Source of the DNA: Squalus acanthias
Lineage: Eukaryota
Assembly: GCA_030390025.1 (NCBI GenBank)
Contig: CM059432.1
Coordinates: forward strand, 7,440,001-7,504,000
Reading direction: 5' to 3'
Length of the DNA stretch: 64,000 nt
Part shown: one piece after another, positions 1 to 49,854 of the stretch
How the letters are laid out: each line of letters opens with the position of its first letter
How positions within the stretch are numbered: position 1 is the first letter of the stretch
Notes under the pieces: model-generated
What the model was told of the DNA's origin: nothing
Seen by the model: only the letters and a program-made list of their open reading frames with translations
Database searches by the model: none
Made by a program: the position numbers and the translations under genes

Positions 1-667
1 CCCCCACCATCAACATCCTGGGGGTCACCATTGACCAGAAACTTAACTGGACCAGCCACATAAATACTGTGGCAACAAGAGCAGGTCAGAGGCTAGGTAT
101 TCTGTGGTGAGTGTCTCACCTCCAGACTCCCCAAAGCCTTTCTACCGTCTACAAGGCACAAGTAAGGAGTGTGATGAGTGCAGCTCCAACAACACTCAAG
201 AAGCTCGACACCATCCAGGACAAAGCAGCCCGCTTGATTGGCACCCCCTCTACCACCTTAAACATCCACTCCCTCCACCACCGGCGTACCGTGGCTGCAA
301 TGTGTACCATCTACAAGATGCACTGCAGCAACTCGCCAAGGCTTCTTCGGCAGCACCTCCCAAACCCGCGACCTGTTCCACCTAGAAGGACGAGGGCAGC
401 AGGCGCCATGGGAACACCACCACCTCCAAGTTCCCCTCCAAGTCGCACACCATCCTGACTTGGAAATATATCGCCGATCCTTCATCGTCGCTGGGTCAAA
501 ATCCTGGAACTCCCTCCCTAACAGCACTGTGGGAGCACCTTCACCACACGGACTGCAGCGGTTCAAGAAGGCAGCTCACCACCACCTTCTCGAGGGCAAT
601 TAGGGATGGGCAATAAATGTTGGCTTTGCCAGCGACGCCCACATCCCATAAATGAATAAGAAAAAAA
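1..667 (+). mobile_element. 3' fragment of a CR1/L2-group non-LTR retrotransposon ('family X', tail ...GGGCAATAAATGCTGGCC...CCCACATCCC-polyA)
   Basis: Encodes a LINE ORF2 C-terminal region (QSLSTVYKAQVRSVM..LDTIQDKAARLIG), then a 3' UTR and A-rich tail. Near-identical copies at 24920-25350(-), 31376-31935(-) and 38675-39231(+). Confidence 0.8.
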
Positions 668-17953: not shown

Positions 17954-18397
17954 CAGAAGCGGACCAGGTGGGAAGCACCCAGGTGAACAGCATTTAAGGA
18001 GGGTGGTGGCTTAAACCCGAGTTCCTACAGAGTAGGAACCCCCACCCGCCCTCCTCCTCTAACCTACTAGTCTTTTAGCAGTCTAAAAACAGAGGTCACA
18101 AATTTTTTGGTCTCAGTTTCTTTTCAGCAGGGCAGGAACCGGGAGGAGCGGGAAGTCGGCGTAGGACCAAGGGGACACAAGACCGGGAAGTCAGCGAAAG
18201 ACCAGGGAGGTAAGACTAACTGGTAAGTACTTTCCTCAAACCTTCCTAGAAAGTAAAACTAAAACTAGTGGGATTTGGTTAGTTTAAAAAGGAATAAGAG
18301 GAGTACAGTATACATTGGTCTAAGTAAGCTTCGGGAAAACAAAAGTCAATAAATAAACTAAAACTAGAAAATTAAAAAGTAATATAAGGGTTAAGTC

Positions 18398-19321
18398 ATG
18401 GCAGTAGAGCTCGGACCTGTGTCATGCTCCTCCTGTAACATGTGGGAAATCAGGGACGCTTCCTGTGTCCCTGACAACCATGTGTGCGGGAAGTGTGTCC
18501 AGCTGCAGCTCATGTGGGACCGCATGACGGCCCTTGAGCTGCGGATGGACTCACTTTGGAGCATCCACGATTCTGAGAGGGTTGTGGATAACACATTTAG
18601 TGAGTTGGTCACACCGCAGGTTAAGGCCAGAGTAGATAGTACATGGGTGACCAAAAGGCAGAGCAAGGGCAGGAAGGTAGTGCAGAAATCCCCTGGGGTT
18701 GTCTCCCTTAGCAACAGGTTCACCGCCTTAGGTGCTGTTGTCGGGGGGGATGACTCATCGGGGGAAGGCACCAGCAGCCAGGCTCATGGCACCATGACTG
18801 GCTCTGTTGCAAAGAAGGGAGGGAAAAAGAGTGGCAGGGCTATAGTAATAGGGGATTCGATTGTAAGGGGAATAGATAGGGGTTTCTGTGGTCGCGACCG
18901 AGACTCCAGGATGGTATGTTGCCTCCCTGGTGCAAGGGTCAAGGATGTCTCGGCGCGGGTGCAGAACATTCTGGAGGGGGAGGGGGAACAGCCAGTTGTC
19001 GTGATACATGTTGGTACCAACGACGTAGCTAAAAAAAGGGAAGAGGTCCTACAAGTAGAATTTAGGGAGTTAGGAGCCAAGCTAAAAAGTAGGACCTCGA
19101 AGGTAGTAATCTCTGGATTACTACCAGTGCCACGTGCTAGTAAGAGTACAGAGAACAGGATAGTTAGGCTAAATACGTGGCTTGAGCAGTGGTGTAAGAG
19201 GGAGGGTTTTAAATTTTTGAGGCATTGGAACCAGTTTTGTGGTAGGTGTGACCTGTGCAAAGATGGAACTGATGTTCTCGGGGTAATTTTTGATAAAGCA
19301 GTTCGGGAGCATTTAAACTAG
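18398..19321 (+). CDS. CR1 ORF1 protein (N-terminal zinc finger/leucine zipper, C-terminal SGNH esterase-like domain)
   Basis: 307 aa; CSSC...CGKC then a heptad Leu run; SGNH blocks VIGDSIVRG, CLPGA, HVGTND. Confidence 0.9.
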   Translation: MAVELGPVSCSSCNMWEIRDASCVPDNHVCGKCVQLQLMWDRMTALELRMDSLWSIHDSERVVDNTFSELVTPQVKARVDSTWVTKRQSKGRKVVQKSPGVVSLSNRFTALGAVVGGDDSSGEGTSSQAHGTMTGSVAKKGGKKSGRAIVIGDSIVRGIDRGFCGRDRDSRMVCCLPGARVKDVSARVQNILEGEGEQPVVVIHVGTNDVAKKREEVLQVEFRELGAKLKSRTSKVVISGLLPVPRASKSTENRIVRLNTWLEQWCKREGFKFLRHWNQFCGRCDLCKDGTDVLGVIFDKAVREHLN

Positions 19322-22263
19322 TATGGCAGGGGGTTAGAAACCTATGTAGTGAAATAGAGGAAAGTGAAAGGCAGACAGAAATAAATGGTAAAAGGGTGAG
19401 GAACAAAAAACAAAGGGCCAAACCAATTCATAAAAAATGTGAGCATAAAAAAAGCCTGAGGGTTTTGTACCTTAATGCGAGAAGCATCAGGAACAAGGTA
19501 GATGAATTAGCTGTGGAAATAGAGGTTAATAATTATGATCTAATTGGGATTACGGAAACATGGTTGCAGGGTGAGCAGGGCTGGGAGCTTAACATACAAG
19601 GGTATTCAGTATTTAGGAAGGATCGACAAAAAAGAAAGGGAGGAGGGGTAGCATTGCTGGTAAAAGAAGGGATAAATGCAATTGAAAGGAAGGATATTAA
19701 CTCAGTTAATACAGAATCTATATGGGTGGAGCTAAGAAATAGCGAGGGGCGAAAAACATTAATAGGAGTGGTATATAGGCCTCCAAATAGTAAAATAGAG
19801 GTTGGGGAGGGCATCACGAGGGAAATTAGAGAAGCGTGCAATAAGAGCACAGCTGTCATCATAGGTGACTTTAACTTACATATAGATTGGAATAGCCTAA
19901 TCAGTAAAAATAATGAGGAGGAGGAATTCCTTGAGTGTTTAAGGGATGGTTATCTGGATCAATATGTCGAGGAACCAACTCGGGAACAGGCTATATTGGA
20001 CTGGGTACTGTGCAATGAGAAGGGACTAATTAGTAATCTTGTTGTACGGGGACCCTTGGGTCAGAGCGATCATAACATGATCGATTTCTCACTCGAAATG
20101 GAGAGCGAAGAAATTGACTCAGATACTAAGGTCCTGAATTTAAACAAGGGGAATTATGATGCCATTAGACGGGAACTGAGTAGGTCTGATTGGACAACGT
20201 TCCTGGGAGGACTGGAGGTAGATAAACAATGGCAAGCATTTAAAGGTAGAATGACAAAATTGCAAAAATTGTTTATACCAATCTGGCATAAAAGGAAATC
20301 TAAAAAGGTGACTCAACCGTGGATAACAGGGGAAATTAGAGACAGCATAAAATCCAAAGATAGGGCGTATAAATTAGCCAAAAAAAGCGCCAGAGCGGAA
20401 GATTGGGAACAGTTTAAGATAGAGCAAAGGAGGACAAAGGGCTTAATCAAGAGGGGCAAAATAGCTTACGAAAGCAAGCTGGCGGAAAATATAAAAACTA
20501 ACTCCAAAAGCTTTTATAAGTATATCAAGAGGAAAAGACTGGTGAAAACCAAAGTTGGCCCATTGCAGTCAGATACGGGGGAATATATAACGGGAAATAA
20601 AGAAATGGCAGACCAACTAAATGCATACTTTGGGTCAGTCTTTACGAAGGAAGACACAAAAAACCTCCCTGGGATATCGGGAAAAATAGGGACATTTGCA
20701 AAGGAGGAACTGACGCAAGTCAATATCTCTAAGGATATGGTGTTAAGGAAGCTAAAGGGATTGAAGGCGGACAAATCCCCAGGGCCTGATAACATGCATC
20801 CTAGGGTGCTGAAGGAGGTGGCCCTTGAGATAGCGGATGCACTAAGTATGATTTTTCAGAATTCATTAGACTCGGGAACAGTGCCCATGGATTGGAGGGT
20901 AGCTAACGTTACCCCACTATTCAAAAAGGGGGGTAGGGAAAAAGCAGGTAATTACAGACCTGTAAGCCTTACATCAGTTGTGGGCAAAATGCTGGAGTCC
21001 ATCATTAAGGATGAAATAGCGGAGCACTTAGCAAATGGGGACAGGATAGGACAGAGTCAACATGGATTTACAAAGGGTAAATCGTGCTTGACTAATCTAT
21101 TGGAATTTTTTGAGGGAGTAACTGGTAAAATAGATGGGGGAGAGCCAGTAGATGTGGTGTACCTGGACTTCCAAAAGGCCTTCGATAAGGTCCCACATAA
21201 AAGATTAGCAGGGAAAATTGAAGCTCATGGGATAAAGGGGAAAGTATTGACGTGGATAGAGAACTGGCTGTCAGATAGAAAACAGAGAGTTGGAATAAAC
21301 GGCTCATTTTCTGAATGGCTGGCAGTAACAAGTGGGGTACCACAGGGATCTGTCCTGGGTCCCCAGCTGTTCACAATTTACATTAATGACCTGGATCAGG
21401 GAGTCGGATGCAGCATTTCCAAATTTGCAGACGACACTAAACTAGGAGGAGGGGTGGGCTCAGAGGAGGAGACCAGGAAGCTCCAGAGCGATTTGGACAG
21501 ACTGGGTGATTGGGCGGATAAATGGCAGATGCACTATAATGTGGACAAGTGCGAAGTTATCCACCTTGGGTGCAGGAACGGGAGGGCAAATTATTATTTA
21601 AATGGCAATAAATTGGGAGAGGGGGAAGTACAGAGAGACCTGGGTGTTCTTGTACACCAGTCACTGAAGGCGAGCATGCAGGTGCAACAGGCGATCAAGA
21701 AGGCAAACGGTATGCTGGCCTTCATAGCAAAAGGGTTGGAATACAGGAACAGGGATACCTTGCTGCAGCTGTACAGGGCACTGGTGAGACCACAGCTCGA
21801 GTACTGTGTACAGTTTTGGTCGCCTCATCTGAGGAAAGATGTTCTTGCCATGGAGGGGGTGCAGCGGCGATTCACCAGGCTGATACCAGGAATGGCGGGA
21901 TTGACCTATGAGGAGAGACTATGTAGTTTAGGGATGTACACACTGGAGTTTAGAAGATTGAGAGGGGACCTCATAGAAGTGTATAAAATTCTGACAGGTC
22001 TAGACAGACTAGATGCAGAAGGAATGTTTCCCTTGGCGGGTGAGAACAGAACTAGAGGACATAATTTAAGGATAAGGGCTAAACCATTTAGGACAGAAAT
22101 GAGGGGGAATTTCTTCACTCAGAGGGTGGTGAACCTGTGGAACTCATTGCCACAGAGGGCAGTGTACGCCAGCTCATTAAATATATTTAAGAGGGAATTA
22201 GATATATTTCTACAGGCAAAAGGGGTTAAGGGTTACGGAGAGAAGGCGGGGACGGGATACTGA
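19297..22263 (+). CDS. CR1 ORF2 protein (AP-like endonuclease + reverse transcriptase); start not defined by an AUG
   Basis: Frame open from 19297 to the stop at 22263. APE motifs YLNARS, ITETW, VYRPP, GDFN, SDH; RT motifs [27 protein letters not shown]. The ORF-track start at 19396 is GTG. Confidence 0.93.
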   Translation, partial: SSSGAFKLVWQGVRNLCSEIEESERQTEINGKRVRNKKQRAKPIHKKCEHKKSLRVLYLNARSIRNKVDELAVEIEVNNYDLIGITETWLQGEQGWELNIQGYSVFRKDRQKRKGGGVALLVKEGINAIERKDINSVNTESIWVELRNSEGRKTLIGVVYRPPNSKIEVGEGITREIREACNKSTAVIIGDFNLHIDWNSLISKNNEEEEFLECLRDGYLDQYVEEPTREQAILDWVLCNEKGLISNLVVRGPLGQSDHNMIDFSLEMESEEIDSDTKVLNLNKGNYDAIRRELSRSDWTTFLGGLEVDKQWQAFKGRMTKLQKLFIPIWHKRKSKKVTQPWITGEIRDSIKSKDRAYKLAKKSARAEDWEQFKIEQRRTKGLIKRGKIAYESKLAENIKTNSKSFYKYIKRKRLVKTKVGPLQSDTGEYITGNKEMADQLNAYFGSVFTKEDTKNLPGISGKIGTFAKEELTQVNISKDMVLRKLKGLKADKSPGPDNMHPRVLKEVALEIADALSMIFQNSLDSGTVPMDWRVANVTPLFKKGGREKAGNYRPVSLTSVVGKMLESIIKDEIAEHLANGDRIGQSQHGFTKGKSCLTNLLEFFEGVTGKIDGGEPVDVVYLDFQKAFDKVPHKRLAGKIEAHGIKGKVLTWIENWLSDRKQRVGINGSFSEWLAVTSGVPQGSVLGPQLFTIYINDLDQGVGCSISKFADDTKLGGGVGSEEETRKLQSDLDRLGDWADKWQMHYNVDKCEVIHLGCRNGRANYYLNGNKLGEGEVQRDLGVLVHQSLKASMQVQQAIKKANGMLAFIAKGLEYRNRDTLLQLYRALVRPQLEYCVQFWSPHLRKDVLAMEGVQRRFTRLIPGMAGLTYEERLCSLGMYTLEFRRLRGDLIEVYKILTGLDRLDAEGMFPLAGENRTRGHNLRIRAKPFRTEMRGNFFTQRVVNLWNSLPQRAVYASSLNIFKRELDIFLQAKGVKGYGEKAGTGY

Positions 22264-24889: not shown

Positions 24890-26145
24890 ATTTTTTTATT
24901 TGTTCATTCATGGTTCGCGGGATTTGGGAGGTGCTGTCGAAGAAGCCTTGGTGAATTGCTGCAGTGCATCTTGTAGATGGTACACACTGCAGCCACGGTA
25001 CGCCGGTGGTGGAGGGAGTGAATGTTTAAGGTGGTGGATTGGGTGCCGATCAAGCGGGCTGCTTTGTCTTGGATGGTGTCGAGCTTCTTAAGTGTTGCTG
25101 GAGCTTCACTCATCCAGGCAAGTGGAGAGTGTTCCATCACACTCCTGACTTGTGCCTTGTAGATGGTGGAAAGGCTTTGGGGAGTCAGGAGGTGAGTCAC
25201 TCGCTGCAGAATACCCAGCCTCTGACCTGCTCTTGTAGCCACAGTATTTATGTGGCTGGTCCAGTTAAGTGATGATGATGGTGGGAGATTCGATGATGGT
25301 AACGCTGTTGAATGTCAAGGGGCGGTGTTTAGACATTCTCTTGGAGATGGTATTTTCCTAGCACTTGTAGGAACAGGAGTAGGCCATTCAACCCCTCGAG
25401 CCTGCTCTGCCATTCCAAGAGATCATGGCTGATCTGTGACCTAACTCCATAAACCCGCCTGTGCCCCATATCCCTTAATATCTTAGGTTAACAAAAATCT
25501 ATCAATCTCAGATTTAAAATTAACAATTGACCGAGCATCAACTGCCATTTGCGGAAGAGTTCCAAACTTCTACCACCCTTTGCGTGTTTCCTAACTTCAC
25601 TCCTGAAAGGTCTGGCTCTAATTTTTCAGCTGCCCCCCTAGTCCTAGACTCCCCAACCAGCGGAAATAGTTTCTCTCTCTCTACCCTATCTGTTCCCCTT
25701 AATATCTTGAAAATTTCGATCAAATCACGCCTTAACATTCTAAATTCCAGGGAATATATGCTGATTACAGCCTGCGGAACCACATGTATGAGTAAAGGTT
25801 TCTGTGAATACAGTCTGCACCACTTAGAATGCCTGCGTTTAGACAGCTTATATCGGCTAAAGAGCGATAACCATTTGCATTAGCGTCAACTTCAAAGTTG
25901 CCGTTTGCGGAAGAGAGTTCCAAACTTCTACCACCCTTTGTGTGTAGAAGTGTTTCCTAATTCCACTTCTGAAAGGTCTGGCTCTAATTTTTAGACTATG
26001 TTCCCTAGTCCTAGACTCCCAAACCAGCGGAGTGGCGCGAATGTTACCTGCCACTCATCAGCCCAAGCCTGAATGTCGGTCCCGGTCTTGCTGCATGCGG
26101 GCACGGACTGCTTCATTAGCTGAGGAGTTGCGAATGGAACTGAAC
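24890..26145 (-). mobile_element. Fragments of family-X LINE (24920-25350, 26030-26145) interleaved with CR1 3' ends
   Basis: ATRAGQRLGILQRVTHLL... and DIQAWADEWQVTFAP motifs; CR1 3' ends at about 25365-25755 and 25890-26030. Confidence 0.75.
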
Positions 26146-26764: not shown

Positions 26765-27580
26765 CTAGAACATGAGTTCAAATCCCACCACAGGAGTTTG
26801 AGAATTTGAATTCAGTTTCGAAAATAATCCAGGATGTTGCCGGGAGTAGAGAATCTTAGCTATGAGGAAAGACTGGATAGGCTGGGTTTGTTTTCCTTGG
26901 AACAGAGGAGGCTGAGGGGAGACCTTATTGAGGTGTATAAAATTATGAGGGGCATAGATAAAGTGGATAGAAAGGACCTATTTCCCTTAGCAGAGGGGTC
27001 AAAAACCAGGGGGCACAGATTTAAAGTAATTGGGGGAAGGTTCAGAGGGGATTTGAGGGGAAGTTTCTTCACCCAGAGGGTTGTGGGGGTCTGGAACTCA
27101 CTGCCTGAAAGGGTGGTAGAGGCAGGAACCCTAGCCACATTTAAAAAGTACTTGGATGTGCACTTGGGATGCTCTAACCTGCAGGGCTACGGGCCAAGAG
27201 CTGGGAAGTGGGATTCGGCTGGATAGCTCTTTGTTGGCCGGCGCGGACACGATGGGCCGAATGGCCTCCTTCCATGCTGTAACTTTCTATGATTCTATGA
27301 AACAAAAAGCTGGGTTGAGTAGAAGTGACCAGGAGGCTGTCGGAGGGTTGTAAAAACCCAACTGGTCCTTTAGGGAAGGAACCCTGCTGTCCTTACCCGC
27401 TCTGGCCGATTTGTGACTCTACACCAACAAGGTTGATTCTTAACTGACCTCTGAAGTCACTCAGCTGGACAAGACTCACCACCCCCCCCCCCCCCTTTCT
27501 CAAGGGCAATTCGGGATGGGCAATAAATGCTGGCCTTGCCAGCGACGTCCACATCCTGCGAATGGAAAAGAAAAAAAAAT
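26765..27580 (+). mobile_element. tRNA-headed SINE with family-X tail, interrupted by a CR1 3' end (26830-27300)
   Basis: GAGTTCAAATCCCACC head remnant; body TAAAAACCCAACTGG...TAGGGAAGG; tail AAGGGCAATT...CCACATCC-polyA. Confidence 0.7.
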
Positions 27581-31375: not shown

Positions 31376-31935
31376 AAAAAATTTGTTTCTGGGATGTGGG
31401 CGTCGCTGGCAAGGCCAGCATTTATTGCCCACCCCTAATTGCCCTTGAGCAGGTGGTGGTGAGCCGCCTTCTTGAACCGCTCCAATCCGTGTGGTGAAGG
31501 TACTCCCACAGTGCTGTTAGGTAGAGAGTTCCAGGATTTTGACCCAGCGACGATGAAGGATCGGCGATATACTTCCAAGTCAGGATGGTGTGTGACTGGG
31601 AGGGGAACTTGGAGGTGGTAGTGTTCCCATGCGCCCGCTGCCCTTGTCCTTCTAGGTGGAAGAGGTCGCGGGTTTGGGAGGTGCTGCCGAAGAAGCCTTG
31701 GCGAGTTGCTGCAGTGCATCTTGTAGATGGTACACACTGCAGCCACGGTGCGCCGGTGGTGGAGGGAGTGAATGTTTAAGGTGGTGGATGGGGTGCCAAT
31801 CAAGCGGGCTGCTTTGTCCTGGATGGTGTCGAGCTTCTTGAGTGTTGTTGTTGGAGCTGCACTCATCCAGGCAAGTGGAGAGTATTCCATCACACTCCTG
31901 ACTTGTGTCTTGTGGATGGTGGAAAGGCTTTGGGG
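31376..31935 (-). mobile_element. Family-X LINE 3' fragment
   Basis: Reverse complement of the 1-667 family. Confidence 0.82.
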
Positions 31936-33142: not shown

Positions 33143-33972
33143 TTAGCATCGTGGTTATGTCACTGGACTAGTAGCACCCCTGTGCTCGCTGACCTACATT
33201 GGCTCCCGGTTAAACAGCACCTTGTTTTCCAATCCCTCCATGGCCTCGCCCCTCCCTATCTCTATAATCTCTTCCAGCCCCACAACCACCCGCACCCCCC
33301 CACCGTGTTAACTGCGCTCCTCTAATTCTGGCCTCTTGAGCATCCCTGATTATAATCGCTCAACCATTGGTGGCCGTGCCTTCTGTTGCCTAGGCCCTAA
33401 GCTGCGGAATTCCCTCCTTAAACCTCTCCGCCTCCTCCTTTAAGACGCTCCTTAAAACCTACCTCTTTGACCAAGCTTTTGGTCACCTGCCCTAATTTCT
33501 CCTTATGTGGCTCGGTGTCAAATTTTTTGTCTTAAAACGCTCCTGTGCATCGCCTTGGGACGGTTTACTATAGTAATCCAGAGGCCTGGACTAATGATCC
33601 GGAGACGTGAGTTTAAATCCCAACCACGGTAGCTGGGGAATTTAAATTTAGTTAATTAAATAAGAATCCGAAATAAAAAGCTAGTATCAGCTATAGTGAC
33701 CATGAAACTATCGGATTATCGTAAAAACCCATCTGGTTCACTAATGTCCTTTAGGGAAGGAAATCTGCCGTCCTTACCTGGTCTGGCCTACCTGTGACGC
33801 CAGACCCACAGCAAGGTGGTTGACTCTTAACAGACCCTCTGAAATGGCCCAGCCAGCCACTCAGCTGTTCAAGAAGGTGGCTCACCACCGCCTTCTCGAG
33901 GGCAATTAGGAATGGCCAATAAATGCTGGCCTTACCGGCGACGCCCACATCCCGTGAACGAATGAAAAAAAG
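33143..33972 (+). mobile_element. tRNA-headed SINE with family-X LINE tail, with an L2 3' end (33175-33571) inserted in the head
   Basis: GTGGTTATGTCACTGGACTAGTA|...|TAGTAATCCAGAGGCC..GAGTTTAAATCCC, conserved body, tail TCAAGAAGG..GGGCAATTAGG..CCCACATCCC. Confidence 0.75.
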
Positions 33973-38674: not shown

Positions 38675-39231
38675 ACCCTTCCACCATCCACAAGGCACAA
38701 GTCAGGAGTGTGATGGAATACTCTCCACTTGCCTGGATGAGTTGCAGCTCCAACAGCACTCAAGAAGCTCGACACCATCCAGGACAAAGCAGCCCGCTTG
38801 ATTGGCACCCCATCCAACCACCTTAAACATTCACTCCCTCCACCACCGGCGCACCTTGGCTGCAGTGTGTACCATCTACAAGATGCACTGCAGCAACTCG
38901 CCAAGACTTCTTCGGCAGCACCTCCCAAACCCGCGACCTCTTCCACCTAGAAGGACAAGGGCAGCAGGCTCATGGGAACACCACCACCTGCAAGTTCCCC
39001 TCCAAGTCACACACCATCCTGACTTAGAAGTATATTGCCGATCCTTCATCGTCGCTGGGTCAAAATCCTGGAACTCCCTACCTAACAGCACTGTGGGAGT
39101 ACCTTCACCACACCGACTGCGGCGGTTCAAGAAGGCGGCTCACCACCACCTTCTCAAGGGCAACTAGGGATGGGCAATAAATTCTGGCCTTGCCAGCGAC
39201 ACCCACATCCCAGGAACGAATAAAAAAAAAA
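38675..39231 (+). mobile_element. Family-X LINE 3' fragment
   Basis: Same family as 1-667, polyA tail. Confidence 0.82.
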
Positions 39232-43315: not shown

Positions 43316-43790
43316 GGGCTGGATTTTCAATGACCCGTGGAGTCGGGTTTGGAGGCGTGTGGGGGGTTAAATTTGCAGATTCAGGGGTCCCGACCCCATC
43401 CCGACTCCAACACGCCTCCACGCAATTTTGACAAAATCGGTCGCGGGGTTCCCGACTCCGTCCCGCCTCCAAGAGGCGGGGGACGCCATTAAAGCCCTTA
43501 ACAAGCCCTAAATTGGCTCTGTAATGCCATTTTGAAACGTTTTAGCTAGTTTAACCCTTTTCCGATGTGAGTACGCCTGATGTGAAACACTCCAGTGAAA
43601 CCTGGCGGGAGCACAAGTGGATAGCTGACTATCAGCTGCAGGTCCACTATTACAATGGAGATGTGATGAAGGTAGTAGTAGTATTGTGATGAAGGTAGTA
43701 GTAGTATTAGGTCTGAAAGTCACCTCTGATGCTGCTGCATTGAATGTCTTCAGAGACTGCCTGGCCTTGCTGTGAGAGGACCTGGATGGA

Positions 43791-44634: not shown

Positions 44635-45420
44635 AGAACATAAGAAATAGGAGCAGGAGTAGGCCATTCGGCCCTGCGAGCCTGCTCCGCCATTCAATGA
44701 GATCATGGCTGATCCTCTATCTCAATACCATATTCCCGCTCTCTCCCCATACCACTTTCCTGCACTATTCCCATATCCCTTGATTCCCCTAGTATCCAAA
44801 AATCTATTGATCTCTATCTTGAATATACTCAACGACTGAGCATCTACAGCCATATAGGCCTATTCTCCTCAATCTCTCCTCATAGGACAATCCCCCCATC
44901 CCAGGGATCAGTCTGGTGAACCTTTGTTGCACTCCCTCTAAGGAAAGTATATCCTTCCTTAGGTAAGGAGACCAAATCTGTACACAATACTCCAGGTGCG
45001 GCCGTTCACCTTTGTGCAGTAACGTTTCGTGATCTACTGAGATCATTGAAAGGTTTGCAGCACTGCAGCCTGGTCCTCCTGACCACATCCCTGCTTCTGT
45101 CCTCCTGTGCAATGTGCAACCAGGTTGTGTTGGTCTCCTGGGGAGGTCTCTTCCACCCATTGGAAGGGAAGAGAACGTCCCTGCATGCTGTGACTCCCTC
45201 CATAAGCACCTATACTCCAATCCCTTTGTAACTAAAGCTAATATACCATTTGCTTTCCTAATTGCTTGCTGTACCTGCATGTTAACTTTCTGTGATTCAT
45301 GTACAAGGACACCCAGGTCCCTCTAAATACCCAGTCTCTCACCATTTAAAAAATATTCTGTTTTTCTATTTTTCCTACCAAAGTGGATAACTTCACATTT
45401 CCCCACATTATACTCCATCT
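44635..45420 (-). mobile_element. CR1 3' fragment carrying an inverted templated insert (45004-45208)
   Basis: MQVQQAIRKANG and HLEYCVQIWSPYL separated by foreign sequence. Confidence 0.85.
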
Positions 45421-45424
45421 GACA

Positions 45425-46900
45425 CCTTGGCTGCGGTTTCGCCTACCGAGGCGGGCTAAGTGCGGCCGAGGTAGGTGGCGGACTGCGACCCCGCTCCTGG
45501 TTCCATCGCGCTCTGTTGAAGGGATTTTGCCCTGATTGGGCTTGTTAAGCCTGCCCTGCGAGGTTCCCAGCCAATTGAAAGGAAGCGGGTCTGATGATGT
45601 CATTTGATGACACGTCATCAGCCGGTTTCCTTAAAGCGACCATGGCCACATTGATTTTGACATTTGTGCTGTCAGTGTTCTACAGCATTGAGGTGCTGCA
45701 AACTCTGACAAGCACTGCACAAAGGTGAACGGCTGCACCCAGGCTCTCCCATGACTCCCTCCGTATGCTTATGGAGGGAGTCACAGCATGCAGGGAGGTT
45801 CTCTTCCCTTCCAATGGGTGGAAGAGACCTCCCCAGGAGACCAACACAATCTGGTTGCACATTGCACAGGAGGGCAGAAGCAGGGATGTGGTCAGGAGGA
45901 CCAGGCTGCAGTGCTGCAAACCTTTCAATGATCTCAGTAGATCACGAAACGTTACTGCAAATCCACACCCAACCTCATCCTGCTGTGCTACTCATCACAT
46001 CCCCATCACTCTACCTTCCCTACCCTACTCCTGCACATCCTTACTCACACCAACTTACCTTGCACCTCCACCCATCCCTCTCTATCTACATTATCACTTC
46101 CCCATCTCACTAGCCACCCCTCACACTCACCCTCATCCTAGTCCAATCACACCAACTAACAACACACAAGGGTAGGCACTTGGGTCTTTTAGCCAATGTT
46201 CATGTAGAGTTTCTGTTAATGTGGTGTCATACATTGAAATCTTTATTTTGAACACTTTGCCTTCTTGGACAGATTTGTGTGCACCTTTGGAAGTGTCTTA
46301 GTGAGTTCCAGTGAATGGTGAGACATAACGGCACCCCCCACAATGCTGATGAGTGTGAAAGGAATGGCTTGGGCATTGTAGGGGTGCTTTATGGTGCTGG
46401 TGTGGGATGGTGCCAACCTGGCGCATCATCTGGCAGCCAGGATGTGCAGCGCCAAGTGAAGTAAATCTGGCCATGGTGAGGCCATCCCTGGCGTCCCGGG
46501 CAGCAATGTTGTCGGGTGCTGATGCCCTGTGTCCTGTGCAGCATCAGTTGATTGTGGAGAAGGTTGGTGTTGTTGTTGGTGCTGCTGGTGTTGCAGTTGA
46601 TCGTGGTGGGATTCAGAGGACCAAGATGAGATTTTTTCAAGAGCACCGATGTTGCTGGAATAGATGACAGCTGAAGTTGAGATGACAGAAGCGATCTGTC
46701 AATGATGAAAGAGCTTGCTCCAAGGCGGTGACAGTGGATAGAGAGTTCGCTCCAAACACTTCCAAACTGCATAAAGCTCAAAAGTGTCTTCCAAATCCTG
46801 AAGGCTCAAGCTTCTAACGCTGGGAAGTGAACAGCTGTGAAATGGTAGCTTTTATACCACTTTTGCAGCTGTCACCTATTCACAGCAATGGAGAGTCATT
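45425..46900 (+). mobile_element. Harbinger-derived remnant with a Myb/SANT-like DNA-binding ORF fragment
   Basis: 45725-45950 reads AAPRLSHDSLRMLMEGVTACREVLFP...WLHIAQE...RTRLQCCKPFNDL, typical of the Harbinger accessory Myb-like protein. Boundaries approximate. Confidence 0.65.
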
Positions 46901-47010: not shown

Positions 47011-47212
47011 GTGAGTACCGATTTGTGTTCGCTGTCTAATAGCCCGGCTTCCCTCCGTTGCTCGTCTTCGTCCGAAAGGCACAATTACACAGCTGTACCC
47101 AATAGAAAACCCATCGCGGCCTCATTAGAACGGGGGGGGGTTGGTTTAGGGAGGGAATTCCAGAGCTTAGGCCCTAGGCAGCTGAAGGCACGGCCGCCAA
47201 TGGTGGGGCAAA

Positions 47213-49090
47213 GCGGTTATGTTACTGGACTAGTACTCCAGAGGCCTGGACTAATGATCTGAGAGATGCGAGTTCAAATCCCACCGCGACAGCCGTGGAA
47301 TTTAAATTCAGTTAATTAAATAAATCGGGAATAAAAAGCTAGGGCTGGATTTTCTCAGCCCCGAGGAGGCAGGCATGGAGGCGGGACTGCCGGTAAAGTA
47401 GCAGAAAGTGGGGGCGGATGGCAAACCCACCCCCATCCCGCCTCCGTGCCCTTTTGCCAGGAGGCGGGAAGATGTGCTGCTTCGGGTCCCGTCTCCTGGA
47501 GGCGGGAAAGGGATTAAATCCTTTTAACTGCCTGTTAACAGGTAGTTAACAGGCAGAAAAAAGGATTAGTGCAATTTTACCTTCTCAGGTGAAGGCTTCC
47601 CGACCTCGGAGAACCCCGTCGGGTTGGAGGAGATGTGAAGGAGGTCTGCGGCGGTCGGAGGAACCTGGAAGTAAGGTGTAGAGGTGAGTGATGGGTGCAA
47701 GTGTGGAGTGGTAAGTATGCAAGGTGAGTGATAAGTGTTTAAAAATGTTCATTTACCTTGTTTTCTTCCTACAGCCGTCATCCACCCTGGATCGGGAGAC
47801 CCGACATCTTTCTTGTCAATTTCACAGACTGGCTGTTGGATCCTCTGAACCAACAGCCATCTGAAATTGACAAAGTTGAAAGGTTTGATGAGTCCTGAAC
47901 ACAAGGGCTCATCAAACTACAGAGAATGTCAGCGTTTGACAGCTTCACAGAGCTGTCAAACGCTGACATTTCTTCTTTCAAGAAGTCTTGACAGATAGCA
48001 CGTCTGACGTTGACGTGCTCTGTCAGTGACTTCCCCCTAAATGGCCTGCTGAGCCCGCAGGGCGGGCTTAACAAGGTCAATCAGGGGAAAATCCCTCTGG
48101 TTGGTCAGAAGATGATGGAGGCGGGACATTGACCCGACAAGCAGCAGTCCTGCCTCCAACTCGTCTCCATTGAGAAAATCCAGCCCCTAGTTTCAGTAAT
48201 GGTGGTCATGAAACTACCGGATTGTCGTAAAAACCCATCTGGTTCACTAATGCCCTTTGGGAAGAAAACATGCCGTCCTTACCCAGTCTGGGCCTATATG
48301 TGACCCCAGACCCACAGCAATGTGGTTGACTCTTAATTGCCCTCCGAAATGGCCCAGCAAGCCATTCAGTTGTACACAACTGCTACGAAAAACAATAATA
48401 AGAATAAAACCGGACGGACCACCCGGCATCGACCTCAGCACCGGCTTCGGATACAATAAAGGCCCACCCAGCCCAGTCGACCCTGCAAAGTCCTCCTCAC
48501 TAACACCTGAGGACTTGTGCCAAAATTGGCAGAGCTGTCCCACAGACTAGTCAAGCAACGGCTTGACATAGTCATACTCACAGAATCATACCTTTCAGCC
48601 ACTGTCCCAGATTCCTCCATCACCATCCCTGGATATGTCCTGTCCCACCGGCAGGACAGACCCACCAGGGGTGGTGGCACAGTGGTATACAGTCGGGAGG
48701 GTGTGGCCTTGGGAGTCCTTAACATTGACTCCGGACCCCCATGAAGTCTCATGGCTTCAGGTCAAACATGGGCAAGGAAACCTCCTGCTGATTACCACCT
48801 ACCGACCTCCCTCAGCTGATGAATCAGTACTCCTCCGTGTTGAACACCACTTGGAAGAAGCACTGAGGGAAACAAGGGCACAGAATGTACTCTGGGTGGG
48901 GGACTTCAATGTCCATCGCCAAGAGTGGCTCGGTAGCACCACTACCGACCGAGCTGGCCGAGTCCTGAAGGACATAGCTGCCAGACTGGGCCTGTGGTGA
49001 AAGAACCAACACGAGGGAAAAACCTACTTGACCTCGTCCTCACCAATTTACCTGTCGCAGATGCATCTGTCCATGACAGCATTGGTAGGA
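47213..49090 (+). mobile_element. 5' part of a LINE with a tRNA-derived head and AP endonuclease ORF, interrupted by a MITE
   Basis: Head 47213-47341, body 48187-48372, then a frameshifted APE (DIVILTESYL, RGGGTVVY, TYRPP, GDFN, EPTRGKNLLDLVL) from about 48490. Confidence 0.78.
47342..48186. mobile_element. PIF/Harbinger-like MITE with 3-bp TSD CTA
   Basis: TIRs GGGCTGGATTTTCTCA / TGAGAAAATCCAGCCC; CTA at 47339-47341 and 48187-48189. Confidence 0.85.
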
Positions 49091-49854
49091 AATGCGGCAA
49101 CCAATATACTCACAGCAAGCTCCCACAAACAGCAATATCACTGTGCTATTTTTAGTGATGTTGGTTGAGGGATAAATATTGGCCAGGAGAACTCCTCTGC
49201 TGTTCCTCAAAATAGTGCCTTGGGATCTTTTATGTCCACCTGAGAGGGCAGACGGGGGCCTCGGTTTAACGTTGCATTCAAAGGACAGCACCTCCGACAG
49301 TGCAGCGCTCCCCTGAGGGTTTCAGCATGGTGTTATGTACTCAAGTCTCTGGAGTAGGGAATTGAAGCCACAGATCTTCTGACTCAGAGGGGGGGAGTGC
49401 TGCCCACTGAGCCGCAGGTGACACTTGCATTTCTCGGCAGAAACGTAGGTGATACTACAATAGCAACACTTGATTATGTGGTTAATATGTTGAACAATTT
49501 CTCCTTGCCTTAATAAAAAAAAATCAAAGTGTCACCAGCAGTCTTTCCTCAGGCCTTTCGCTCTCAGTGGGGAATCCACTCAGTCTAGAGTTTACCTTTA
49601 ACTGCAGGAAACACATATTCTCATCTCTCTGAGGTATTTTTTAAAACGGCTCCTACTGTGCTGGTTGAGATCACACCATAAGCCGGATGGCCTTGTCCTC
49701 CTTCCTCCCCTGTGGTTTGCTGGCTGTGCAATGGAGTGATTTCTAACCTGAAAGGCTGCCCAGCGAGCAGTGGCGAACAACATAATCAAATGCGAGTCAA
49801 AGAGAAACCAACAATATGCACAAGAGAAATACATTCGAGAGAAACCTTGTGAAA

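Follow-up and report, generated by a model that had tools for sequence, protein, structure and literature searches.

By working definition, SINEs are non-coding elements transcribed by Pol III, and LINEs are coding elements transcribed by Pol II. The closest described system to the locus reported here is Zenon, a family of CR1-group LINEs that, in the account of Stuart et al. 2026 (PMC13343379), is without ORF1 in all of its elements. Its elasmobranch members are represented there by seven consensuses of 2886–3314 nt (SquAca_Zenon-1, -2 and -3, and the Zenon-1 consensuses of CarCar, ScyCan, RhiTyp and HypSab) from white shark, whale shark, catshark, spiny dogfish (three) and stingray. To build these consensuses, RT domains served as seeds for outward extension, and for this reason a head found at their 5’ ends is tied to the RT. 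Long copies number in the thousands, with denominators of 59–2313 in Table S3 of the same paper, and the words “tRNA”, “promoter” and “polymerase” do not occur in its main text. Composite elements provide two further points of comparison. In Lepidoptera, the SIDE Persaeus joins a LINE 5’ UTR and ORF start to the ORF end and 3’ UTR and ends in poly(A) (PMC6740152), and the SINEs Bov-tA and SINE2-1_ACar consist of a tRNA head followed by a LINE 5’ part and a LINE 3’ part (Kojima 2018, PMC5786205).

Here we describe a locus in a window of 64,000 nucleotides from Squalus acanthias (GCA_030390025.1, contig CM059432.1, positions 7,440,001 to 7,504,000). A sequence-only reading of this window had proposed that a LINE endonuclease frame directly behind a tRNA-derived head belongs to an autonomous retrotransposon with a tRNA-type internal promoter. 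The structural part of this proposal stands, in that an autonomous LINE family without ORF1 regularly begins with head, body and endonuclease, but the support drawn from runs of four Ts (T4) is not significant. The Zenon family and its loss of ORF1 are already known; a tRNA head on the autonomous element is undescribed in the literature searched. The head-body-endonuclease unit of Zenon is real and recurrent, and for its transcription we propose a mechanism: full-length Zenon RNA may be made by Pol III from the tRNA-like head, to which we assign a probability of roughly 0.5.

A Zenon copy interrupted by a MITE

On the evidence of its sequence, 47214–49089 is a decayed, 3’-truncated copy of the elasmobranch Zenon LINE, interrupted by an 845-bp MITE. 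The copy begins on the forward strand with a 5’-clipped tRNA-like head (47214–47341) made up of a D-arm end, an anticodon-like arm, a near-copy of that arm, a B box and an AT-rich spacer. Beyond the MITE, the conserved body that is the remaining 5’ UTR (48187–48375, forward strand), which contains an ATG at 48349 and is also present in short elements, is followed on the same strand by a LINE-only leader (48376–48489), Arg/Lys-rich in the endonuclease frame with a single stop at 48457, and by a decayed APE endonuclease domain (48490–49089; Pfam PF14529) that is broken off at 49089. An unrelated SINE piece on the reverse strand (49085–49425), which we take to be Deu-SINE/SacSINE1, stands in place of the remaining LINE; at the joint near 49085–49089, 5–6 nt are common to both, and a contig has a loose end at 49085. 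Since the 3’ two-thirds of the copy are missing, no target-site duplication is readable. With the MITE removed, about 430 nt lead from the head to the endonuclease motif, leaving no space for an ORF1, and the motif begins at 48490, 114 nt past the end of the shared body; both observations agree with the sequence-only reading, which had put the latter gap at about 120 nt. Lack of ORF1 is shared by all Zenon elements, as was already known, and is not a consequence of the head.

The MITE (47342–48186) is a later insertion with perfect 15-bp terminal inverted repeats and a 3-bp CTA duplication, CTA standing on either side as previously claimed, and is presumably PIF/Harbinger-like. Contigs that omit it were seen in 4/4 runs aligned (47100–49200, 82% likeness), and run X9, from coded organism C, had zero depth in nine bins within the MITE with head, body and ORF covered. 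The MITE reached high depth in three runs and none in X9, and is therefore a lineage-restricted family. It contains several internal palindromes (~47517–47567, ~47813–47873 and ~47925–47970), and a diverged relative begins at 43316.

The endonuclease domain scored above the cut-off for PF14529 (E 1.7e-08 at 48737–48994) and below it for PF03372 (E 0.0036). Its frame is damaged by a stop at 48508, which with the leader stop at 48457 makes two stops in the copy, and by frame breaks near 48736 and 48995. At both stops and at 48994 most contigs of other copies differ from the window, and at 48736 about half differ; since most contigs carry other letters at both stops, the damage is largely this copy’s own.

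The window as a whole is repeat-rich DNA, and its named homologues point to a cartilaginous fish. It also holds a full-length CR1 at 18395–22263, a candidate young copy whose ORF1 (308 codons) and ORF2 (988 codons) are both open and overlap by 25 nt, and an inverted repeat pair (45015–45208 and 45766–45959; 194 nt, 98%, 557 nt between) whose first arm lies within a CR1 fragment.

Assignment to the Zenon family

All seven elasmobranch Zenon consensuses, from five species, start with the head, the body and the endonuclease leader (first 400 letters each; PMC13343379 Table S2), and over these 400 letters SquAca_Zenon-1 is, by eye, nearly letter-identical to the head, body and leader of the window. 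This match to the consensuses, judged by eye, is accompanied by the two further marks of the family, namely the lack of ORF1 and the APE domain. The RT is carried by the homologue P0110; the window copy stops ahead of it. In the first 400 letters of the two hagfish consensuses and the single coelacanth Zenon consensus there was no such head. Consensus lengths agree with the longest genomic insertions in six of the seven elasmobranch cases, and an element of ~3.3 kb less its UTRs accommodates one ORF of ~975 codons, comparable to the 983 aa of P0110, a protein composed of APE, RT and an end like that of the 3’ fragments termed family X below.

A tRNA-headed autonomous LINE was not described in the literature searched, to which Dfam, Repbase, SINEBase and subscription journals were out of reach. 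Ingi elements in Repbase are said to have SINE-like 5’ ends and are a possible precedent.

Recurrence of the head-body-endonuclease unit

Is the junction of head, body and endonuclease a property of the family, or an accident of one locus? The window contains a single head-endonuclease junction, which might represent a local SINE-LINE chimera or a LINE that targets this SINE, and the junction in the consensuses might be an artefact of their construction, since a body common to SINE and LINE may mislead automatic extension. Such an accidental join has become very improbable and is already largely refuted. The order of parts is identical in the seven consensuses from five species, each species with its own specific head, and the junction recurs in a contig of another organism and in five gene models of two sharks. 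The contig (run X9 contig 25; 328 nt, 52 differences) spans 48312–48644 from body through leader into endonuclease, and was the one piece among the 32 listed that bridged body and leader by at least 31 letters on both sides; no contig among those listed covers the stretch from end to end. The 904-nt stretch of body and ORF was present in 20 of 24 listed runs (nine studies, eight coded organisms; two rows at small share).

Among the gene models, the whale-shark model P0006 begins at the equivalent of ATG 48349 and aligned over 112 residues at 59%, and body-derived residues lie beside endonuclease residues in P0015, P0005 and P0003 of whale shark and P0001 of horn shark, for P0003 and P0005 by eye; a comparison of P0003 in one frame gave no alignment. 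These bridging models are spurious calls over decayed copies and serve as evidence for adjacency only. The shark gene models P0001, P0002, P0165, P0166 and P0168 contain pieces of the Zenon LINE as exons, which are probably annotation artefacts. A body motif had no match in contigs from viruses, metagenomes and prokaryotic genomes, and a first protein search yielded 0 of 232 candidates. The head-APE junction is thus not confined to this locus, and no ORF1 stands upstream of it in the head-first consensuses of 2886–3314 nt; the opposite of either would have counted against the sequence-only reading.

Promoter boxes in the tRNA-like head

As that reading had noted, the head of the window copy contains an anticodon-like arm (47225–47241) and a B box (47271–47281), with the second near-copy of the arm at 47246–47262; however, its 5’ end is clipped. 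Contigs of an upstream repeat match up to 47213 and diverge beyond; the copy has therefore lost ~13–17 nt at the start of the head, and with them most of its A box. The resemblance to tRNA is weak: Rfam aligned 47206–47284 to tRNA positions 9–63 (12.6 bits, E 3.6), over the model’s D-, anticodon and T-arms and with an insert of 22 nt, no tRNA match was among the 20 weak Rfam hits over 47100–48500, and ARAGORN reported no tRNA in the head. The head is 85% identical to 33571–33684. An isolated 5’ head fragment of the family, at 56890–56955, has the A-box region and no body after it.

The consensuses provide the part that the window copy has lost. By eye, the first base is G in all seven and the A box begins at position 6–11 in all seven, so that the 5’ end lies a few bases ahead of the A box, as in a Pol III type 2 promoter. 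A tRNA-type start has this geometry, with an A box a few bases after a 5’ G. Both the A and the B box are retained, by eye, over five orders represented by five species with an inter-box spacer that varies, although the B box of the stingray consensus deviates. Two B-box 10-mers occur six times in the consensus table (1,004 rows, first 400 letters each), every time in an elasmobranch Zenon row. No acceptor stem was seen by eye in the seven consensus heads, and for this reason the feature that has been kept would appear to be the promoter boxes, not the full tRNA fold.

The insert between the anticodon arm and the B box (47246–47262) nearly duplicates the anticodon arm. At the equivalent position the white shark, whale shark and catshark consensuses have, by eye, a hairpin with another stem sequence; a changed stem within the same hairpin hints at possible selection on RNA shape.

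One hypothesis that gives weight to RNA structure is that the head is a processing signal, such that an RNase P-like activity trims longer transcripts, of the host or from Pol II read-through, to the tRNA-like 5’ end, and the structured 5’ end then assists cap-independent translation, in parallel to the self-cleaving ribozymes of R2, RTE and Ingi. Cleavage of this kind would set the 5’ end where the tRNA begins with no need for a 3.3-kb Pol III transcript, and the A and B boxes would double as D- and T-loop structure. Ribozymes at the 5’ end have been described in six LINE clades (PMC5786205), and the endonuclease domain has no methionine. The lack of a visible acceptor stem and the ARAGORN result nevertheless argue against it, and folding of the window’s head plus body was no better than that of shuffled sequences (z -1.2, -1.0 and -0.3). 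We consider processing of this kind unlikely.

The translation start

There is no in-frame ATG in the endonuclease domain of the window copy. The ATG at 48349 in the body is in the endonuclease frame in this copy and in whale-shark model P0006 and, judged by eye from spacing, in the white shark, catshark and stingray consensuses; by the same measure it is out of frame in the whale shark and SquAca-1 consensuses. In six of the seven consensuses, its equivalent meets a stop at the third codon. As a conserved start codon this ATG is weakened by the codon-3 stop (6/7) and by being out of frame in the main consensuses of two of five species. A second ATG, which lies in the leader, is present by eye in six of seven consensuses and replaced by ATA at 48404 in the window; the short frame behind it runs across the start of the endonuclease in a different frame. 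Read in the endonuclease frame the leader is rich in Arg, a feature shared by the N-terminus of P0110. The codon-3 stops, the frame mismatch and the absence of an endonuclease ATG indicate that translation likely starts unconventionally, by reinitiation or at a non-AUG codon, or that active copies deviate from the consensuses at codon 3.

Short elements and the candidate 3’ end

The ~190-nt body (48187–48376) is 85% identical to 33681–33871 and 67% identical to 27310–27465, which belong to two short derivatives on the forward strand. The first (33143–33972) consists of head, body, the last ~110 nt of family X and poly(A), and is split by another repeat at ~33175–33570, without which it measures ~435 nt. 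The older one (26774–27580) is split by a CR1 piece at ~26829–27299 and retains the B-box part of the head, the body and the family-X tail. The claim that the same head and body join the family-X tail therefore holds for 33143–33972, but in 26765–27580 only the B-box part of the head is present and it is more diverged (72%). Both elements pass from body to tail at one common junction, their tails are 85–87% identical to family-X 3’ ends over ~110 nt, and they retain the 5’ part to ~25 nt beyond ATG 48349 plus the last codons and 3’ UTR. Like tRNA-derived SINEs they are non-coding, shorter than 500 nt and carry a LINE-derived 3’ tail; their A/B-box head is assigned via the Zenon consensuses, the window copies being clipped or decayed with an Rfam tRNA E value of 3.6.

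Family X itself is represented by four fragments. The fragment at 1–667 (forward strand) holds the ORF end, a 3’ UTR with AATAAA ~45 nt ahead of the A-tail, and poly(A). Neither head nor body stands in front of the 5’-truncated 3’ fragments at 38675–39231 (forward) and 31376–31935 (reverse), nor of the internal fragment with C-terminal ORF at 24915–25270 (reverse). All three fragments with a visible 5’ junction are thus without the body ahead, which argues against the notion, raised above as one form of accidental join, that the LINE targets the SINE.

Family X is likely the 3’ end of the same Zenon family, because P0110 matches both parts, because of its poly(A) tail and because the short elements are shared. 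The family-X C-terminus matched P0110 at 34% and 83 bits, with the next protein at 41 bits and CR1 giving no match, in a ranking of 11 proteins of at least 600 aa plus the CR1 frames of the window, and P0110 is also the best of these proteins for both halves of the window endonuclease. A family-X tail motif had no match in the Zenon consensus table, whose first 400 letters per row stop short of the 3’ ends. The link that the sequence-only reading had drawn through the shared SINE is strengthened by these matches, across what are separate pieces of DNA. Poly(A) is present on family-X fragments and short elements, and we infer their tie to this 5’ part. Head, RT and tail would accordingly form one unit, as pieced together from separate molecules and consensuses.

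Derivation of the SINE from the LINE is a plausible direction. In an alternative order, the head could have been added to a bipartite element first, as in the model of Kojima (PMC5786205), and the LINE could have gained it later by exchange via the shared body.

Which polymerase makes the full-length RNA?

Pol III transcription is inferred because the boxes are conserved and located at the 5’ end. Under this proposal, Pol III would start at the first G of the head, read through the ORF and the templated A-tail to give a ~3.3-kb RNA, and, in the manner of SINEs, stop at a flanking T-run. Translation of this RNA would do without a normal cap, the conserved body helping to load ribosomes either at a non-AUG codon or by reinitiation once a very short upstream frame has been read, and the RNA would be reverse-transcribed into new DNA copies. 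The short elements would, on the simplest view, be the head-to-tail unit minus the ORF, transcribed and mobilised like the LINE. Exchange with the abundant short partner could, against this proposal, maintain the boxes by itself, and the weak tRNA match (Rfam E 3.6) and the deviant stingray B box also speak against it.

Pol III terminates at four or more Ts, and the sequence-only reading had taken the lack of TTTT on the sense strand as support. This lack is true of the Zenon segment, but one T-run lies inside 31376–31935, at its extreme 3’ end. Over a pooled, non-redundant 1691 nt, about half of a Zenon element, 0 TTTT were found against 2.19 expected (P 0.098), which is not beyond chance, and synonymous resampling of 286 codons gave 0.3–1.4 expected (P 0.22–0.73), again not significant. 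The contrast drawn with CR1 is correct in that CR1 ORF2 has six TTTT in 2967 nt, but this is about what its composition predicts. TTT codons number 0/286 here versus 22/988 in CR1, but the homologous regions of P0110 are Phe-poor as well (3/284). The scarcity of T4 is compatible with Pol III and is not significant.

An alternative hypothesis, possible though less probable than the Pol III proposal, is that Pol II makes the translated full-length RNA and that the head is either a captured passenger or a dual-use promoter, with Pol III serving the short elements only. In the dual-use variant, TFIIIC would keep the head open and Pol II would initiate there, at the same base or close to it. Pol III RNAs have no cap, and this hypothesis would account for translation with no need of new biology; transcription of LINEs by Pol II is established, the AATAAA lies ~45 nt before the A-tail, and the T4 scarcity that might have favored Pol III is not significant. 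Bipartite LINEs have been argued to be Pol II units (PMC5786205), and lepidopteran Zenon and its deletion derivative Persaeus function without a tRNA head (PMC6740152). Pol III RNAs are regarded as doubtful templates for translation in PMC6023835, a paper that also cites Gunnery and Mathews 1995 for a functional Pol III-made mRNA. According to the same paper, Pol II can initiate where Pol III does on the 7SK and U6 (type 3) promoters, and the position of the 5’ end therefore does not name the polymerase. However, this known dual activity concerns gene-external type 3 promoters and not internal type 2 boxes. Moreover, the Pol II hypothesis must account for tRNA-gene box geometry in five species despite spacer drift, and it leaves the absence of a clean start codon unexplained.

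Comparison with known systems

A tRNA-like head on a coding LINE implies either a natural Pol III-made mRNA or a tRNA promoter co-opted by Pol II. If the former is correct, the translatability of Pol III RNA would become testable in a native system. Under either reading, deletion of the ORF would provide a one-step route to a SINE, and the conserved body of a SINE would be traced to a LINE 5’ UTR in the CR1 group.

The tRNA-headed SINEs of cartilaginous fishes and hagfish, namely SacSINE1, the CmiSINEs and the UCON3 SINEs, come from the same animal group, but they are built with Deu, CORE or UCON3 bodies and with L2, RTE or CR1 tails (PMC5499810, PMC7245038). None of five head and body motifs was found in the supplements of the hagfish SINE paper, and a UCON3-domain SINE was rejected as an identity for the short elements, as the motifs were not found in the supplements and the printed UCON3 rows are unlike the body.

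Persaeus is a described deletion derivative from the same LINE superfamily (PMC6740152). It is without tRNA homology or a Pol III promoter, whereas in the sharks both the short and the long forms carry the tRNA-like head. Bov-tA and SINE2-1_ACar resemble the short shark elements in combining a tRNA head with both ends of a LINE; however, the head is there on the non-autonomous form only, and the donors found were RTE and Vingi only (PMC5786205). In Zenon the head is on the autonomous LINE itself, and the LINE belongs to the CR1 group. The elasmobranch Zenon elements of Stuart et al. 2026 agree with the window copy in head, body, leader, APE and lack of ORF1, and the likeness in poly(A) rests on the family-X fragments; the head stands in the consensus table of that paper (PMC13343379) and is undescribed in its main text.
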